Below, piece after piece: positions 7,512 through 47,999 of a DNA stretch of 64,000 bases (position 1 is its first letter; each line of letters starts with the position of its first letter). The notes under the pieces were generated by a model that was not told where the DNA came from, did no database searches, and was given only the letters and a program-made list of their open reading frames with translations. The DNA is from a virus, in the IMG/VR virus record IMGVR_UViG_3300049427_000004, positions 64,001 through 128,000 of that record; one strand, written 5' to 3'. Position numbers and translations under genes: made by a program.

Positions 7512-7589
7512 TGGTGGACTCTGTGGGGCACGATCCCACAACCTACCGCTTATGAGACGGTTGCTGCTAACCAGTTGAGCTAAGAGTCC
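7512..7589 (-). tRNA. tRNA with CAT anticodon, probably tRNA-Ile2 (lysidine type); encoded CCA
   Basis: Acceptor GGACTCT/AGAGTCC+ACCA, anticodon loop CTCATAA, T-stem GTGGG/CCCAC; resembles Bacillus tRNA-Ile2 more than tRNA-Met. Confidence 0.85.
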
Positions 7590-8083: not shown

Positions 8084-8308
8084 TTAGCTTTTAACTGACA
8101 TGTATTCATTTGTAGTCGATTCAATTGCATCTATATCACCTCTGAAAACAGTGATCCATTTCGATAATTCATGCATATTTATTACATTTTCTTTTAAAAC
8201 TGAGTATGTATTTGAAGCTTTATCAATTCCACAGCAATGTTCAATCCACAACAGAAAGCTATCAGGATCATCTTCCCATTTCTCTAGTAAATCATCAATA
8301 TTAATCAA
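8084..8308 (-). CDS. Hypothetical acidic protein
   Basis: AGAGGGGG RBS before TTG (MINIDDLLEKW...). Confidence 0.45.
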   Translation of the reverse strand: MINIDDLLEKWEDDPDSFLLWIEHCCGIDKASNTYSVLKENVINMHELSKWITVFRGDIDAIESTTNEYMSVKS

Positions 8309-8438
8309 AATTGCTTCCCCCTCTGAATTCACTAGACAATATTTCCTATATATGTAGTATATAAGATCTATATATGGAAATGAATGATCAATTGCTATTA
8401 AAATTATGTATTGACACATAAGCATTTTTTTGCTCTTG

Positions 8439-8508
8439 TGTCGACAAAAAAAGGATAAAGTGTCGAAAAAGACTCAATCCATTGTAATGAACAGAATACT
8501 TTGTCGAA
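8439..8508. promoter_or_regulatory. Three Spo0A-box-like sites
   Basis: TGTCGAC 8439, TGTCGAA 8461, TGTCGAA 8502 in an intergenic region. Confidence 0.5.
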
Positions 8509-8567
8509 TACTGTAGATTACTGATATTTTTCTTTTGTGATCACGCAAATCCAACGCAAAAACTAAA

Positions 8568-9086
8568 CTATCTGCTCCCTAATGGCGAATATTCAAATAC
8601 GTCTCTTACTGACTTATTGAGGTATAGATCTCTTTCTTTACCTAATTCAGATTTTAGTACACCTCTAATCGCAGCTCCAGATACAGGAATAGAATGCTCT
8701 TTTGTGAAGTAAACACGATGTAAATTAGAGTGATACCATTGAATCATTTTCATATTAACCAATAATCCATTATCTAATTTCTTAAACTTGAAATTATCTA
8801 CAAGATGATCCTGCATGAACTCTAGATTCACATTAGAAGTTATCACCTCTCCAGTAACGAGAAAGATATTCGTTACATTATTTTTAGGATTGATAGCGTA
8901 TAGAATGGCTTCTACATCTACATTTTTTGCTCTATCTATTTTAACGGGAATGGAAATAAATTGTCCATTCTCCAGATTTTCCGAAATCCAATCACCTAAC
9001 TCCGCAAACTCATACTGCATAAAATTCTGCTCGTTGATTGTTTCTTTAATAAAATCTCTTCTAGTTTTCATTAAAGTACACCTCAT
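8568..9086 (-). CDS. LytTR DNA-binding domain protein lacking a receiver domain
   Basis: VEAILY...NLEFMQDHL...FKKLDNGLLVNMKMI...SIPVS matches the LytTR pattern; N-terminus too short for REC. Confidence 0.7.
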   Translation of the reverse strand: MRCTLMKTRRDFIKETINEQNFMQYEFAELGDWISENLENGQFISIPVKIDRAKNVDVEAILYAINPKNNVTNIFLVTGEVITSNVNLEFMQDHLVDNFKFKKLDNGLLVNMKMIQWYHSNLHRVYFTKEHSIPVSGAAIRGVLKSELGKERDLYLNKSVRDVFEYSPLGSR

Positions 9087-9181
9087 TTCGTTTAATTGAT
9101 GTTAATCGGGTTGTGATTTGCTTGAGTGTACCCCATAAGGCACACCCAAGCATAGTTATGTATTGTTATAAAAATTATGTA

Positions 9182-9286
9182 TTACTTACGCGGATCTAAA
9201 AACCAAACAATTTTTGATGTTGTGATGACAGTTGGGATTGCTAGAATGAGCGCTAACAAAGCTGTTGCGACAGATGACTTTTTAAT
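9182..9286 (-). CDS. AgrD-like propeptide (34 aa, probable ATT start)
   Basis: MKKSSVATALLALILAIPTVITTSKIVWFLDPRK; GGAGG RBS 8 nt before ATT; lies in the AgrB operon. Confidence 0.55.
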   Translation of the reverse strand: MKKSSVATALLALILAIPTVITTSKIVWFLDPRK

Positions 9287-9308
9287 ATTTCTCACCTCCA
9301 TTATAAAA

Positions 9309-9977
9309 TTAACGATACTCATAGTTATCTCTTCTAAAAGAAAGATATAGCAGAATGAGAGTTGAAACAATTAATACGAAAACAAAGATAAGTATTAAGT
9401 GAACATTATTATCATGATGCATACAAATATAGAGAACTCCACTTATAATTAAGATCAATGATACAGTAGCTGTTAGAAATTTTGTGTGTCCACCTTTATC
9501 CAAAGTAAAAGAAAAACCACTTTTACTCCAAATAATGTACAAAGATATTGTTGTTATAAGTGCAGCGTTAATGCTTTGTGTGAAGTAAGCTTTAGTTGAA
9601 AAGGAAGACATTAAATCATTTTCCGTTAGAACTCCGTAATGTAAAAATAATAATACAAGTACTGTTTGAATTAATGTAACTATAACTATTCCTACAGAAG
9701 AAGTGATAAGCATATGTAACTTCTTTTTCTTTGTGATTATAAACAAGAGAATCCAAATTATAAGAAGGTTTATGATTATTGGAGAGACAAAATCGTAAAC
9801 ATTAAATACTACTAGAAGGTATGTGAGAAATGTTGAACCGAGTGTGAGTATTACTAGTTCTTTTTTATAATAAGCAGGATACATATTAAAAAACGCTAAG
9901 ATAAAGAGAAACAAACTAAAATACTCTAGAGAGCTAAAAAACATATACCCTGCAAAATTCACAAAATGATCAACCAT
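9309..9977 (-). CDS. Multi-pass membrane protein resembling an AgrC-type sensor domain, without kinase domain
   Basis: About 7 hydrophobic segments over 222 aa, ends right after the last TM segment; between agrB and the peptide gene. Confidence 0.7.
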   Translation of the reverse strand: MVDHFVNFAGYMFFSSLEYFSLFLFILAFFNMYPAYYKKELVILTLGSTFLTYLLVVFNVYDFVSPIIINLLIIWILLFIITKKKKLHMLITSSVGIVIVTLIQTVLVLLFLHYGVLTENDLMSSFSTKAYFTQSINAALITTISLYIIWSKSGFSFTLDKGGHTKFLTATVSLILIISGVLYICMHHDNNVHLILIFVFVLIVSTLILLYLSFRRDNYEYR

Positions 9978-9983
9978 CTTCTT

Positions 9984-10508
9984 CTACCGCCTCTTCACTC
10001 TTATTAAATCAAACCCTAAAACTAACCACATTGAAAGAAGGATTTCATTAACATAAAACGACATAACACAAAGTAATAAAGATATTATTTTCTTTGTGTA
10101 GAAGTGTTTTGATTCGTCATTGAAAGGTGCAAATATACTGTGCAAAACAATTGCAGTTATGAATGAAATAGTTGGATAATCTTGAACTATGTAGGATAAT
10201 GGAATCACTCCTAGTATAACTCCTATAGTTAAAAAGTAACAGATATCAACTGAAAAATGATGCCCACCATTCCACCATCTAATAAATGCAAATGAGATAA
10301 ATGACAAGAAAAGCTCTAACCATAATCCTGTTATCCACCCAAAGATTAAAAGTGTTAATGTAACTGCTATGTATAGAAGAATAATTTTCAATCTGTTTTG
10401 AATTTCCGTTAAGTCATTATTTTGTTTTTTTATATTTTCTTTTGTTTCATTTTCTAATTGATTCCAGATCCAACTTCCTATGTGTAAAGCTGCTCTTTTT
10501 AGTAGCAA
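9984..10508 (-). CDS. agrB: AgrB-family peptide-processing membrane protein
   Basis: IRWWNGGHHFSVDIC keeps the R-GG-H-x6-C catalytic motif; FAP motif; hydrophobic. Confidence 0.85.
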   Translation of the reverse strand: MLLKRAALHIGSWIWNQLENETKENIKKQNNDLTEIQNRLKIILLYIAVTLTLLIFGWITGLWLELFLSFISFAFIRWWNGGHHFSVDICYFLTIGVILGVIPLSYIVQDYPTISFITAIVLHSIFAPFNDESKHFYTKKIISLLLCVMSFYVNEILLSMWLVLGFDLIRVKRR

Positions 10509-10533
10509 TTTTGCATCCCCTTCCGATGTACCT

Positions 10534-10563
10534 AATATATCATGTATTTACTATTCAAGTCAA
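10534..10563 (-). promoter_or_regulatory. SigA-type promoter of the agr-like operon
   Basis: TTGACT-N18-TATATT with extended -10 TG. Confidence 0.55.
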
Positions 10564-10599: not shown

Positions 10600-10631
10600 A
10601 AAAAAAGAAAACCCTAGATCAATATCTAGGG
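10600..10631 (-). terminator. Intrinsic terminator after the mrpR-like gene
   Basis: CCCTAGAT/ATCTAGGG stem plus T-tract on the minus strand. Confidence 0.7.
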
Positions 10632-11600
10632 CAATTGATAAACACTTTTCAGAACTTCTTCATTTAAAACGTCCTGTTTTAGACGATATAAATCACCCTC
10701 GGTCTTGTCGTTAAATCGATCCATAATCATGTCATAGTGCTCATCCACTATTTGATTATTATTGGACACGTATAGCTCTTTTAAATAATAGAGCATACCG
10801 CTCTTCGCAATATTAGCTGGTGTGAATGCAGGTTCGTCGATGCTTTTTGCAATTCTAGCCAGTGCGCTATATACAATGCTTACTCTGGCTTCATTGAAGC
10901 TTTTTACGCGAGTTTTTGCTGTACGAATTATATAATTATTTTCAACTAAAGTTGTGAATTCTGACTTTATATCAGCTGCTGGATCTCCATTTGCTTTGTG
11001 ATACCGTTCTTCATTGTAAGCGTTCATACAGATATCAATAGTTTCTTCTGGAACAGGTATGGTTCTACTAAGAGTGTTATCATCATGTAGATGAAGTCTG
11101 TGATTCGCAATATCTATGCTTTCTCTTTGTAAATTTAGTAATTCAGAACCACCTGTGCCCATCACGCCCTGAAAAATCAATTCAATTATCGCTTTATCTC
11201 GATGATTTACTCTGCCTCTGATTATTTTATTGATTTCGTCTCTAGTCCAAAACCTTTTCAGTACTTTGTTCGCGAACATTTGCTTCCACTCAGTATCAAC
11301 GAAGTCTAAAGGGTTAGTTCCAGTCTTATATCCAAGTTCTAAATTCCAATCAATATATTTCGATACATATGCTACGTTTGCCCCACTGGAAGCTTTTGTG
11401 GCTGGTCTAAAGAGATAAAATAGCTTCAATAGATCATCACGATTGAAATCAGCTAAGTCCTTATCGAGTTGTTCTTCAAGAGGTTGAGACACTTTAAAGA
11501 TTCTTGCGTTAATTTCTCTCGTTCCCTTGCTTTTAGTTGCCAGATATTCAAATTTGCGGTCTTGATTATATAGTCGGTCTTCATAGACAACATTAGACAT
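10626..11600 (-). CDS. MrpR (YopR)-like lytic-cycle repressor, degenerate tyrosine-recombinase fold
   Basis: 324 aa; integrase-like layout with catalytic R and HxxR replaced (GTGGSELL, NIAKSG); follows a YopQ-like gene as in SPbeta; recognised by eye. Confidence 0.72.
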   Translation of the reverse strand: MSNVVYEDRLYNQDRKFEYLATKSKGTREINARIFKVSQPLEEQLDKDLADFNRDDLLKLFYLFRPATKASSGANVAYVSKYIDWNLELGYKTGTNPLDFVDTEWKQMFANKVLKRFWTRDEINKIIRGRVNHRDKAIIELIFQGVMGTGGSELLNLQRESIDIANHRLHLHDDNTLSRTIPVPEETIDICMNAYNEERYHKANGDPAADIKSEFTTLVENNYIIRTAKTRVKSFNEARVSIVYSALARIAKSIDEPAFTPANIAKSGMLYYLKELYVSNNNQIVDEHYDMIMDRFNDKTEGDLYRLKQDVLNEEVLKSVYQLP

Positions 11601-11621: not shown

Positions 11622-12968
11622 TTATTCAAACATGCTTCTTAATTCTTCTTGAAAATACTTTCTAATCAATTCTTTACTTTGGTTGGAATTTCTATTTCCT
11701 TGCTCTAGCATAATTTTGTCTAGTTTATTACCAGTTCCTTTTGTATAGTCAATCGTTTCAATTCCTTGAGTAATTAGACTAACAGGAAATTCTAATGATC
11801 CATTATATTTGTCGTAAATCAATTTTGCTAAAATCATAAATCCGCAGTGCATATTGTGATGATTAAACCAGCTTACAGAACGTCTTTTTTTCATGTCTGT
11901 TTTAAAATCTTCTGGGTATGCAGACAAGAAATATCCATAAAACTTTTTCAAGAAATCAGAAATCTCATACATCTCTTTTGTGCTTTCTGGTTTAAAGGTA
12001 ATATTTATTGAGTCAGCAAGTATTGAGTAGTTTGTGATCATATTCAAAGTCTTGCTTACAGTAGTCTTATCTGTTTCTACTCTATCTCTTAGTTCTGGAA
12101 TTTGAATCAAGTTTTTGGTTACTAGACCACCGAAAGAGTCATCTGTATTAAATCTTACTAAGTTCTTATCAAAGCGATTGACAGTATTCAATAATCCGAT
12201 ATGGTAACGAGCCATATTTAAATCATAATTACGAATCGAAACTTCAAATGATCCTTCTAAATCAGGATTCTCTTCCAAAGCTGCCATGGTTCCCATCAAA
12301 CGGTGCATGCCGTCTACAATGTTGAGGTTCGTTCCCTCTTCAATAATCAAATCCCCATCTTCGTATTCATAATTGTCATTTCCATCTGCAAGTATGTTGA
12401 AAGTTAATGTTGACTTAAGAAATTTACCTTCAAGCATTAATCTTGCGATATTATTCACGCTCTTTTTTATTACTGTAGGAGTTTTTTTGATGTTTCCTTT
12501 TGCCATTAACTTTTTCTTAGGTGCTCTTTGTGTTTCATAGTTATACGTCAAAAGACCTGCGTTCCATATCTTTTTAAGTTCTTGGTAAGTGATTAATGTT
12601 AAAAATTCATTGTGAGATGCTCTCAGTACACCTTCAATGACATAGGGAAATTCAAACCTGTCCTCTTGTTTCAGTTTAAGTTTTAATCCTTTTTGAATTT
12701 CTTTCTCGCTAAAAAATAATGTTGGAGCAATTCTTTCGTCTTTAGCAATCACATGCATTGCATGAATAATACAAATTAATTCTTCTTGGGTCAAGAAATT
12801 CAGTTTTTCATTATCATTCATGACTTGATCAAAAGTACCAAAAGTCATTTTGTGCTTCTGTGCGAGATATTCATCGATTTCTCTCAATTTGTCCTTATCT
12901 TTTGTCAAATCTGCAAACACTTCATTTATTGATTCTAAGATGTCTTTCTCTTGTGCTACTTCGCTCAT
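11622..12968 (-). CDS. YopQ-like DndB/DGQHR (ParB-like) domain protein
   Basis: IVDGMHRL motif; size and position next to the MrpR-like gene. Confidence 0.65.
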   Translation of the reverse strand: MSEVAQEKDILESINEVFADLTKDKDKLREIDEYLAQKHKMTFGTFDQVMNDNEKLNFLTQEELICIIHAMHVIAKDERIAPTLFFSEKEIQKGLKLKLKQEDRFEFPYVIEGVLRASHNEFLTLITYQELKKIWNAGLLTYNYETQRAPKKKLMAKGNIKKTPTVIKKSVNNIARLMLEGKFLKSTLTFNILADGNDNYEYEDGDLIIEEGTNLNIVDGMHRLMGTMAALEENPDLEGSFEVSIRNYDLNMARYHIGLLNTVNRFDKNLVRFNTDDSFGGLVTKNLIQIPELRDRVETDKTTVSKTLNMITNYSILADSINITFKPESTKEMYEISDFLKKFYGYFLSAYPEDFKTDMKKRRSVSWFNHHNMHCGFMILAKLIYDKYNGSLEFPVSLITQGIETIDYTKGTGNKLDKIMLEQGNRNSNQSKELIRKYFQEELRSMFE

Positions 12969-20248: not shown

Positions 20249-20346
20249 ATTACCACTTTATACATATAAAACGCAAGAAAAAGATTGCGAATTTTTTAAA
20301 GATTTTTATATTTTATTTTAATATTCGACAACCGCTTTATAAAAAG

Positions 20347-45758: not shown

Positions 45759-47999
45759 CTACTCATTCTTCAACATGCTCTCCAAAAATGTCTGTCTTCT
45801 CAAATTATCCACCTTACGCATAGCATAATTCAATGTCTCAGCTTGAGTTAAAATGATACAATAGTCAACAGCTCTCGTGATCGCAGTATAGATTAAGTTG
45901 CAGCTTAACTGGAATTTATGAGATCTGTCTGCAATAATCAAAACAGCCTTACTACTACTCCCTTGACTCTTGTGACAGGTTATACTCCAAGCATGGATCA
46001 ACTGGTTCATCTCATCTAATGACAATTTAACTGTATCATCATCAAATTCAATGATAGTTCCTCTAGGGTCAACCATTATCTCATCTTCATTTCCTTCTTC
46101 ATCTTGAACATACTTTATGTATTTTTCACCTTCTAGGACAATGTTCTGTATTGTTCCACTATCTCCATTTACAATCGTGACTGCTTCGCCTTCATCATTT
46201 TCAATTCCATATGTATTTTTTACATTCATAACATAATCATCTTGTCTAAAGGTCATATAGTCACCGTACTGATATTCAACCTTGGCTTCTGTTTTAGGAT
46301 TAACAAGTTCTTGAACGTACTTGTTAATTTCCACCGTACCGATTTCCCCTTTTTTCGTGGGAGTTAATACCATGATATCCATAGGGTCAAATTTATTGAG
46401 ATATTTTTTGTAATAATGTTTGTATCCATCTTGCATATGATTTTGATCAACACAATGAATGATTAGATTTTCGCCAAACTTCTTCACACCTGAGAAATTG
46501 TCGTCAATGAATTTCTGCTTCATTCGCACACGGCTTGCTATATCAAGAATGCCACCTTCACTTTGGCGAAACACAATATCCAACATAGTCGCTGGAATCA
46601 CTTTGCTTTCAATTGCATCGTGCAATATATTTCCGCCCATGACCGCAGCAAGCTGAGCAGAGTCACCGCAAAATAATATCCTTGCTTTTGGATTAGTTAT
46701 TTTAGATAATAGCATCTGCATTATGAAGATATCAGTCATCGACATCTCGTCTACCACAATTACATCAGCGTCAACTTATATCAATTGTCTTTGCTCTTTG
46801 TCTTTTCCATATCCAATAGCTCTATGTATAGTTTGTGCTTGCCTTCCTGTATAACTTGACAATAGTTTGGCAGCTTTACCTGTAGGAGATAGTAAAACAT
46901 AACTCATTCCTAACTCCTCTAATAATTCAACAAGCAATCTTTGCATCTGAGTTTTCCCTGTACCAGCATATCCTACTAATAGTGAGGCAGAATGCTTTTT
47001 AACATTATGAAAAAATTCCTTCTGTTGCTCAGACAAACCATGTTTTAAGGTATCTTTATATTTGACTTCCATGCGATGTATAAATTCATTTGGGTCAAAA
47101 TTTAATTCCATAGAATTATGAAGCATTTGTTTTAGTTTTGTTGCTATGTGTTTTTCAGCTTGATAAGTTTTCAATAAGGCAATCTTATCACCAATAACAA
47201 TAATTCCTTCTGTATTTTTAATTTGTTCGTTTATTAAATTTTCATTGATATCTAAGTTGTCGATAGCTGCTTTAACCATTTTGTCAATTATCATATATGT
47301 ATGACCTTCTTGCTGATTGTTCTCTAGTGTATATTTGATTCCAGATTGAATTCTGAATGGATGATCGAAAACAAACCCCATCTTACGTGCAATGATATCT
47401 GCTTTCTTGAATCCTATTCCACTCACTAGCTCACAAAGGCAGTAAGGATTGTCTTCAATCTTTTGAATAGCTAATTGCACACTTTCAAACTTCTCTGCAA
47501 TTTTCATAACTACATTGTATGTAATTCCATATCGACCAAGTTTAGATAGTAAGTCTCTATGTTCGATATTTTCTAAAACTTTTTTACGTATCTGTTTATA
47601 TGTCTTTTCACCTATACCCTTAACCAATTTAGAATTGAACTTGTCATCCACAATCATTTGGATAATATCCTCGTTTAGATACACTTTAAATAATTCTTCA
47701 ACCTGTTTATCTGTTAAAAGATACCTAAAGAATGATTTTTGATCCTCACCTGAAGATGGCATATCTTGATATATGGAATGACACTCATAACTTGCACCGT
47801 ATTGTGGATGAACCTCGGTTAACTCTACATTGGCAACATACTCCACTCCTAAATCTAAACGCTGCATGACTCCCTTTATTGATGCATTACTGTATTTATT
47901 AAGTTGTATCGCATGGTCTTTGGTGGTACATGAATAAATGCGAAAATCACCTTTATTGAATATCATTTTAATTGGTGTTAATTTAGTTTCAATTATCAT
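45759..47999 (-). pseudogene. recD2: RecD2-like SF1B helicase interrupted by one in-frame TAA
   Basis: GYAGTGKT, then QLI*VDADVIVVDEMSM in the same frame (TAA at 46776-46778); CHKSQGS and YTAITRA motifs. Confidence 0.85.

Follow-up and report, generated by a model that had tools for sequence, protein, structure and literature searches.

Could a temperate phage make and sense a peptide signal of the Agr type without any phosphorelay, and could such a system act on its own early transcription? The question is raised by four minus-strand genes at positions 8568-10563 of a 64,000-nucleotide stretch of viral DNA (the window, whose positions serve as coordinates throughout), which comprises bases 64,001-128,000 of the 178,866-bp IMG/VR record IMGVR_UViG_3300049427_000004. 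Behind the terminator of a gene for a homologue of the lysogeny repressor MrpR, and behind a SigA-type promoter, the genes encode an AgrB-like peptidase, a seven-helix transmembrane protein (7TM), a very short pre-peptide and a DNA-binding protein of the LytTR family. An initial annotation had listed these elements and all are present where it put them: a complete, phage-borne, Agr-like peptide module does lie beside MrpR and YopQ lysogeny genes. The interpretation then attached to the module is partly supported. On the sequence evidence assembled here, the chances are about even that the module is self-contained and Agr-derived, works without a phosphorelay and feeds into early transcription of the phage. 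The best-supported reading is that it stands mechanistically closest to the LytTR regulatory systems (LRS), and that several temperate phage lineages have wired it into their lysogeny-control regions. All genes and elements whose extents are given below lie on the minus strand of the window unless another locus is named.

The arrangement is not a matter of chance: contigs independent of one another share the gene string, with proteins 24-72% identical. The full order YopQ-MrpR-AgrB-7TM-peptide-LytTR is found in a Logan contig with a host junction (L003), in a 261-kb contig (L005), in Paenibacillus xylaniclasticus NBRC 106381 (L006/L014/L015) and in a further genome (L009/L010). L018 likewise has the four genes behind MrpR, with the 7TM gene placed before agrB, and in genome G158, for which the 7TM gene alone was looked at, a 7TM match comes directly after MrpR. 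Paenibacillus phage Harrison carries 7TM, AgrB and peptide genes together with a LytTR-type protein near a serine recombinase and XRE regulators, in its lysogeny region, and in Brevibacillus phage Davies the module lies between integrase and repressor genes. Davies gp44 and gp45 each match the 7TM profile with E 1e-29; gp48 gave no match to the LytTR profile, its likeness to that family being apparent by eye only. A LytTR gene is linked in all the phage loci examined. Among bacteria, the 7TM family is present in 35 of 401 sampled Bacilli species genomes, and in every one of 30 fetched bacterial loci agrB adjoins the 7TM gene, with a LytTR-type gene within 1.5 kb in 21 of them. Other routes to relatives were less productive. 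The module DNA matched none of 50,697 phage records, among which no SPbeta-like phage with such a module was found, and tblastn of the LytTR protein against phages found nothing. Pattern scans with AgrB or LytTR over viral and genome contigs gave nothing that was confirmed, and word-index protein searches yielded one or two relatives each.

The first gene of the module (9984-10508, TTG start) encodes a 174-residue AgrB-like peptidase/cyclase that matches PF04647 with 48.7 bits (cut-off 23). AgrB of the Agr system is a membrane peptidase with catalytic His and Cys residues; both are kept here in a GGHH...C stretch, as had been noticed earlier, and they are likewise kept in all seven aligned homologues. 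This is the sole AgrB in the whole phage record. A PDB sequence search with it came back empty.

The second gene (9309-9977) encodes the 222-residue 7TM protein, which matches no Pfam family. Searching 1.84 billion representative sequences with a profile of the family gave 115 clusters, nearly all of 205-240 residues and matching end to end, and in 113 of these the 7TM region stands alone. One match, of 463 residues, is a histidine kinase with HATPase_c and HATPase_c_5 domains, situated in a classical agr locus beside agrB and the gene for a 49-residue peptide. Since alignment of a 50-sequence 7TM profile with residues 2-211 of this kinase using hhalign gave a probability of 99% and an E of 2.5e-18 over 203 columns, the 7TM protein is, on homology grounds, an AgrC-type sensor domain without its kinase. 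A complete AgrC has the sensor fused to a histidine kinase of the HPK10 type; here the homologous sensor part alone is present, the protein stopping 10 residues past its last helix with neither HATPase nor HisKA domain. The C-terminal tail bears a conserved (K/R)(K/R)D..EY motif. An AlphaFold2 model with a predicted local distance difference test score (pLDDT) of 95.3 has seven long helices; Foldseek and VIA-align searches with it gave generic helical matches only, without a solved structure alike, and a search of the ESM Atlas returned clusters without names only. Some modules contain tandem 7TM paralogues (Davies gp44 and gp45, L046:2092-3496, and those of L025), which may represent two ligand specificities or the halves of a heterodimer.

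The last gene (8568-9071) encodes a 167-residue protein in which a LytTR DNA-binding domain (PF04397) is present and a receiver domain absent. The initial annotation identified the protein correctly; translation starts at 9071 and not at 9086, behind a GAGGTG of its own. Taken alone, the protein barely passes the PF04397 threshold (23.2 bits, cut-off 22.6). Thirteen of 17 members of its family match PF04397, with a best E of 1.6e-14, and a profile of all 17 matches the DNA-binding domain of AgrA (4XQQ/3BS1) at E 5e-8 and ComE at 3e-5; judged by these profiles the family assignment is solid. The LytTR domain is preceded by an N-terminal helical extension of about 45 residues and the protein ends in an EY(S/Y)P tail. 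A PDB sequence search with a small LytTR alignment was empty, and AlphaFold2 modelling from a three-sequence alignment reached a pLDDT of 40. No member of the family contains a Response_reg domain. Of the receiver and LytTR domains that make up AgrA, the module thus retains the latter. With the kinase domain absent from the receptor and the receiver domain absent from the regulator, phosphotransfer is excluded at both ends of the pathway, and this combination, on which the initial annotation is silent, is the most unusual feature of the module. The LRS are characterised by an arrangement of this kind, a soluble, receiver-less LytTR regulator whose gene shares an operon with that of a membrane protein.

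The pre-peptide gene (9182-9286) specifies 34 residues from an ATT codon that has GGAGGTG 6 nucleotides (nt) upstream, or 39 residues from an ATG at 9301. The 34-residue form, which had been proposed at the outset, is supported by homology because the ATT aligns with TTG or ATG starts in L003, L005, L006, L008 and L009. The peptide is very hydrophobic with a signal-like leader, and matches nothing in Pfam or NCBIfam. A Lys-containing hydrophobic core is followed by a tail of 4-5 residues, these being KIVWF and LDPRK in the window. An AgrD peptide has, five residues ahead of its cleavage site, a Cys or Ser, and its acidic tail is of the Pro-x-Glu-Leu (PxEL) type; neither feature is seen here. 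Throughout the MrpR-linked phage clade the PxEL tail has gone, with a Lys and four to six hydrophobic residues kept; the core K-x-x-(W/F)-F is conserved without any conserved Cys or Ser, and its Lys is the sole invariant residue with a nucleophilic side chain. The idea that AgrB closes an ordinary ring on ...TTSKIVWFL fares poorly against this alignment. A Ser or Thr lactone was rejected, as L003 and L005 have Ala in place of the Ser beside the Lys of the window peptide and the Thr varies too, and from the sequences an ordinary Cys or Ser ring appears unlikely for the clade as a whole. We infer, and no more than infer, that the Lys amine could serve as the ring-closing nucleophile in place of a thiol or hydroxyl; we found no published case of a lactam among natural autoinducing peptides. 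In most members the residues before the Lys are small, as would suit removal of the leader by signal peptidase I.

Counting over 22 distinct cores from modules of the 7TM family separates two classes of peptide. In the canonical class (10 cores) a Ser (nine cases) or Cys (one case) lies exactly 10 residues before the Pro of the PxEL-type tail, this being the register of staphylococcal AgrD. The Lys class (12 cores) has neither Cys nor Ser, and a Lys lies exactly 9 residues before that Pro. A further canonical AgrD peptide, of the Cys type, is found in the module of L013. The occurrence of canonical AgrD peptides in related modules ties the module to Agr chemistry.

A stable stem-loop (9119-9152; 15-bp stem, -24.9 kcal/mol, z -5.3) separates the peptide gene from the LytTR gene. 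Hairpins of unrelated sequence occupy the same place in L003, L005, L006, L008 and L013; a U-tract follows in L013 and is absent in the other four and in the window. The position suggests a processing, stabilising or attenuating element between the signal-production genes and the regulator gene.

The near-consensus promoter of the module (10534-10563) comprises TTGACT and TATATT separated by 18 nt, with an upstream TG forming an extended -10. Its -35 box and an TGATATATT element are kept in L003, L005 and L006. The promoter region holds neither a TTCGACA repeat nor the 14-bp palindrome of the phage's early promoters, both described below, and for this reason the promoter is probably constitutive, in lysogens too. 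Repeats for positive autoregulation of the LRS type (two of 9 bp, 11-13 bp apart, 4-11 bp ahead of the -35) are not found upstream of the promoter in the window, L003, L005 or L006.

Upstream of the module lie the genes that define its setting. The mrpR (yopR)-like master repressor gene (10626-11600) matches PF22822 with 79.5 bits and PF22823 with 70.9 bits, its product being about 30% identical to the homologues from SPbeta-type (YopR) and Tsamsa-group Bacillus phages. It is preceded by a yopQ-like gene of the DndB/DGQHR type (11622-12968; PF14072, 62.6 bits), as it is in L003, L005, L006 and L009. The SPbeta-type lysogeny module consists of such a pair, a YopQ gene of the DndB type ahead of one for the tyrosine-recombinase-like MrpR, and the order is that of phage Goe14. 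The intrinsic terminator of mrpR (10611-10632) has a 9-bp stem and then the T-run TTTCTTTTTT; a counterpart hairpin with T-run follows mrpR in the same four relatives. The record has a CheckV completeness of 93% and a G+C content of 34%. A single sequencing run, a freshwater metagenome and probably the source, contains its DNA, and no RNA run is listed for it. The window encodes functions of a large temperate phage: Ku, an ATP-dependent ligase, a DNA polymerase III beta clamp, a RecD2-like helicase, a tubulin/FtsZ-like protein, an integrase and PhoH. The carrier is a large SPbeta-like phage. That at least six other MrpR-type prophages have kept this placement, and that Harrison and Davies carry the module in their lysogeny regions, speaks for a regulatory role in the phage.

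What the regulator might bind is suggested by the gap of about 250 bp between its stop codon and the next gene. This contains three direct repeats of the TTCGACA type (8438-8508; starts at 8508, 8467 and 8445) spaced by 41 and 22 bp. In L005 the spacing between three such copies is exactly 21 bp, and in L003 two copies are separated by 63 bp. The last copy in the window, L003 and L005 alike stands exactly 29 nt before a conserved box, GTGTCAATACATAAT at 8403-8417 of the window, which takes the identical or near-identical form GTGTCAATACATA(A/T) in the three sequences and is a candidate -10 region or operator for the promoter of the next operon. Known LytTR sites consist of repeats of 9 bp with 12 bp between them, positioned 4-11 bp ahead of the -35 (PMC6193735). 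Spacing in multiples of 21-22 bp is typical of LytTR sites, and the TTCGACA repeats are thus a possible target of the LytTR protein. The motif is local, without genome-wide enrichment. A second type of repeat, TTTGCG(T/G), occurs as a pair 11 bp apart directly 3' of the LytTR stop (8540-8562); such a pair follows or overlaps that stop in L003 (9566-9590) and L006 (7433-7452) and is absent in L005.

TTCGACA was also considered as an operator of the MrpR-like repressor and rejected, owing to the lack of genome-wide enrichment and to the presence of a different, 14-bp near-palindrome, TTTAYATATRTAAA, between the -35 and -10 of six early promoters (window positions 20257, 26152, 31827, 35003, 35514 and 37530, minus strand). 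This palindrome is likely to be the operator of the MrpR-like repressor. Elsewhere in the record there is a single TTCGACA/TACGACA pair with 20-bp spacing, intergenic among small genes at genome position 154002 (90002 when counted from the start of the window, and so beyond its end), which could be a second LytTR site or a chance occurrence.

Assembled into a working scheme, these elements would act as follows. The probably constitutive promoter behind the mrpR terminator would drive agrB, the receptor, the pre-peptide and then, past the stem-loop, the regulator gene. Trimming of the pre-peptide at its C-terminus by AgrB, and cleavage of the leader by signal peptidase, would give a very hydrophobic peptide of 5-7 residues that starts at the invariant Lys, with either a linear form or a ring closed by the Lys amine. 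This product would build up outside phage-carrying cells, where the 7TM protein, with its short conserved cytoplasmic tail, is a plausible sensor by virtue of its homology to AgrC. By analogy with the LRS, the membrane protein would hold or free the receiver-less LytTR protein by direct contact. Once freed, the regulator would bind the TTCGACA repeats downstream of its own gene and so set transcription of the adjacent phage operon, which leads into the replication genes. By analogy with arbitrium, the density of phage carriers might in this way bias the choice between lysis and lysogeny, or prophage induction, in either direction.

Several observations weigh against this scheme. The window peptide lacks the PxEL tail, so that its processing by AgrB is assumed. 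Across the genome the count of TTCGACA pairs is not unusual (three found, 2.5 expected), the weight of the repeats resting on three to four relatives only, and the conserved box overlaps AATACATA, an octamer common throughout the genome. A clear -35/-10 pair for the downstream promoter was not found, which makes read-through from the module promoter possible. Lastly, 28 of the 30 loci of the module family are chromosomal and have no adjacent MrpR, which points to a generic signalling cassette. A bolder version of the scheme can be formulated, namely that temperate phages of spore-forming Bacillota, SPbeta-like ones and others, practise phosphorylation-independent, Agr-type communication between phages through a Lys-anchored peptide (an AgrB-made macrolactam or a linear hexapeptide), with a kinase-less AgrC gating a LytTR regulator of early transcription. 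This we hold only tentatively, and consider it rather more doubtful than the self-contained module as such. If true, it would provide a second, mechanistically unrelated counterpart of arbitrium and a new chemical class of autoinducing peptide.

The same preponderance of chromosomal, MrpR-unlinked loci lends itself to the possible, if somewhat unlikely, alternative that the module is a moron: a real peptide system whose LytTR output falls on host genes or Agr-type circuits (for instance antibiotic production, biofilm, sporulation), to the advantage of the lysogen, and not on the lysis-lysogeny decision. In Harrison and Davies it sits where morons usually lie, and some hosts (G402 and G296) carry further agrB genes. 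Agr peptides are known to regulate antibiotic production in Paenibacillus (PMC12180512), and host-directed roles for phage agr genes were proposed by Hargreaves 2014 (PMC3901668). Yet the position after mrpR has been kept across phages with protein identities of only 24-56%, in two gene orders, and the conserved repeats precede the next phage operon. In P. xylaniclasticus, moreover, the agrB of the prophage is the only one of the genome; the module is therefore self-sufficient there, with no host agrB to interfere with, and manipulation of host Agr signalling, which had been put forward as one possible purpose, is unlikely to be its general one.

That the peptide is instead an antimicrobial or exclusion factor, killing non-lysogens or blocking superinfection, with AgrB and the 7TM protein serving maturation, export and immunity and the LytTR protein acting as the regulator of a bacteriocin locus, seems improbable to us. 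LytTR regulators do typically govern class II bacteriocin loci (PMC6193735), and a very hydrophobic peptide with a signal-like leader would suit such a function. The conserved part of the peptide, however, is 5-7 residues long and too short for a known type of bacteriocin, the 7TM protein is a homologue of a receptor domain and not of an immunity protein or transporter, and the module includes neither an ABC transporter nor an immunity gene. Least credible of all is the view that an agrBDCA locus was captured, is decaying and has ceased to signal, for although kinase and receiver domains are missing and the peptide lacks the canonical Cys/Ser and PxEL tail, all the loci examined have the four genes intact, the truncated form prevails across the 115 clusters and the 35 of 401 genomes, the receptor model is confident and its tail motif conserved, and the catalytic residues of AgrB are retained.

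The Agr-derived module had been suggested to act instead of arbitrium, no AimR-like receptor being visible in the window. The absence of AimR extends to the whole record, in which PF22871 has no match at E<=1 and tblastn of Goe14 AimR finds nothing; as positive controls, AimR was recovered from the SPbeta-type phage Goe14 (E 3.9e-110) and from B. subtilis. AimR is also absent from the two genomes with related prophages that were searched. SPbeta itself has both MrpR and AimR. Among the 401 Bacilli genomes, however, 19 are MrpR-positive (by MrpR_N) and 13 AimR-positive, with no overlap, and outside the B. subtilis group elements of the MrpR type seem seldom to carry arbitrium. With AimR in none of the 19 MrpR-positive genomes, three of which have the module adjoining MrpR, absence of arbitrium is normal for elements of this type and no proof that the module has replaced it. 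Mutual exclusivity with arbitrium, for which a check of relatives had been proposed, is uninformative and was discarded as an argument, since AimR and MrpR never co-occur in the sample.

The operon that the repeats precede begins with a gene of about 76 codons (8084-8314, TTG start), which has a homologue in the same place in L003, and continues with a 59-codon gene, a tRNA-Met (CAT anticodon; 7512-7589), a 369-codon gene and an AAA_24 gene. An Rfam scan detected the tRNA only. The 369-residue protein matches no Pfam family, and its position is occupied in L005 by a gene of the YorF family (PF27337).

Some further observations concern the record and its relatives at large. The octamer AATACATA occurs 84 times in the record, with about 16 copies expected; those in the window include copies at 8405, 9157 and 9176. 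Transcription runs in the same direction as 74 of the 84 copies, on the minus strand to the left of about 48 kb of the window and on the plus strand to the right of about 56 kb; of all 84 copies, 52 lie inside genes. In four of the six early promoters with the 14-bp near-palindrome a copy lies some 20-30 nt downstream of the latter. The octamer may be an oriented signal, whether Chi-like, for packaging or transcription-related. The RecD2-like helicase is represented by two adjoining open reading frames (ORFs) on the minus strand (45759-47999) with a gap of 18 nt: that at 46776-47999 covers HHH_RecD2 and the first part of AAA_30, and that at 45759-46757 the remainder of AAA_30, SH3_13 and UvrD_C_2. 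The gene could be split, frameshifted or expressed by read-through. Just downstream of the LytTR gene of the chromosomal module in L013 there is a CRISPR-like array (L013:3100-3353) whose repeat ends in ...CCACGCTCCTACGTAAGGAGCGAC.

Few phage communication systems are understood, arbitrium chief among them, and to these the module would add one that senses at the cell surface and dispenses with both a kinase and the import of its peptide. A stand-alone AgrC sensor domain paired with a LytTR-only regulator is also a widespread variant of Agr signalling, present in about 9% of the Bacilli species sampled. The replacement of the Cys/Ser ring residue by Lys in about half of the module peptides poses a chemical question, lactam or linear. 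The module is testable in isolated phages (Harrison of Paenibacillus larvae, Davies of Brevibacillus laterosporus) and in the type strain P. xylaniclasticus NBRC 106381.

Comparison with the agrBDCA system of Staphylococcus aureus reveals an AgrB-family peptidase that keeps its His and Cys, the gene of a small pre-peptide next to agrB, a homologue of the AgrC sensor, and a regulator whose closest solved relative is the LytTR domain of AgrA. Unlike that system, the module is carried by a phage, its receptor has no DHp or ATPase domain and its regulator no receiver, hence there is no phosphotransfer; its peptide lacks the ring Cys/Ser and has a tail of 4-5 residues, and its promoter is without autoregulatory repeats. 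With arbitrium (AimR-AimP-AimX) the module would share a phage-encoded short peptide, presumably of about six residues when mature, with a receptor and regulator of its own in a lysogeny region of the MrpR/YopQ type. It differs in having no AimR, in a receptor that is membrane-bound and faces outwards where AimR is an Opp-dependent, cytoplasmic protein of tetratricopeptide repeats, in its location downstream and not upstream of the yopQ-mrpR pair, and in a maturation that would fall to AgrB.

As in the LRS HdrRM and BrsRM of Streptococcus mutans, a receiver-less LytTR regulator is encoded beside a membrane protein, control is presumed by analogy to operate through direct sequestration at the membrane and not through phosphorylation, and candidate direct repeats at a phasing of about 21 bp precede the target promoter (PMC6193735). 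The membrane partner in the module is a 7TM homologue of the AgrC sensor and not of the HdrM or BrsM type, the repeats lie downstream of the operon and not at its own promoter, and the operon includes a dedicated peptide and AgrB, which allows the signal to be guessed at. The nearest precedents among phages are agr3 of phiCDHM1, from Clostridioides difficile, and the cassettes of Davies, Emery and Abouo, all being temperate phages with agrB, agrD and an AgrC-like gene; phiCDHM1, unlike the module, has a full-length AgrC kinase and no regulator (PMC3901668). Hargreaves 2014 remarked, without taking the matter further, that Davies, Emery and Abouo carry AgrB, AgrD and membrane proteins without an ATPase domain (PMC3901668). 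With this remark as a partial precedent, what is new here is the homology of the 7TM protein to the AgrC sensor, its LytTR-only partner, the recurrence of the module, the phased TTCGACA repeats and the Lys-type peptides, together with the mechanism that they suggest.

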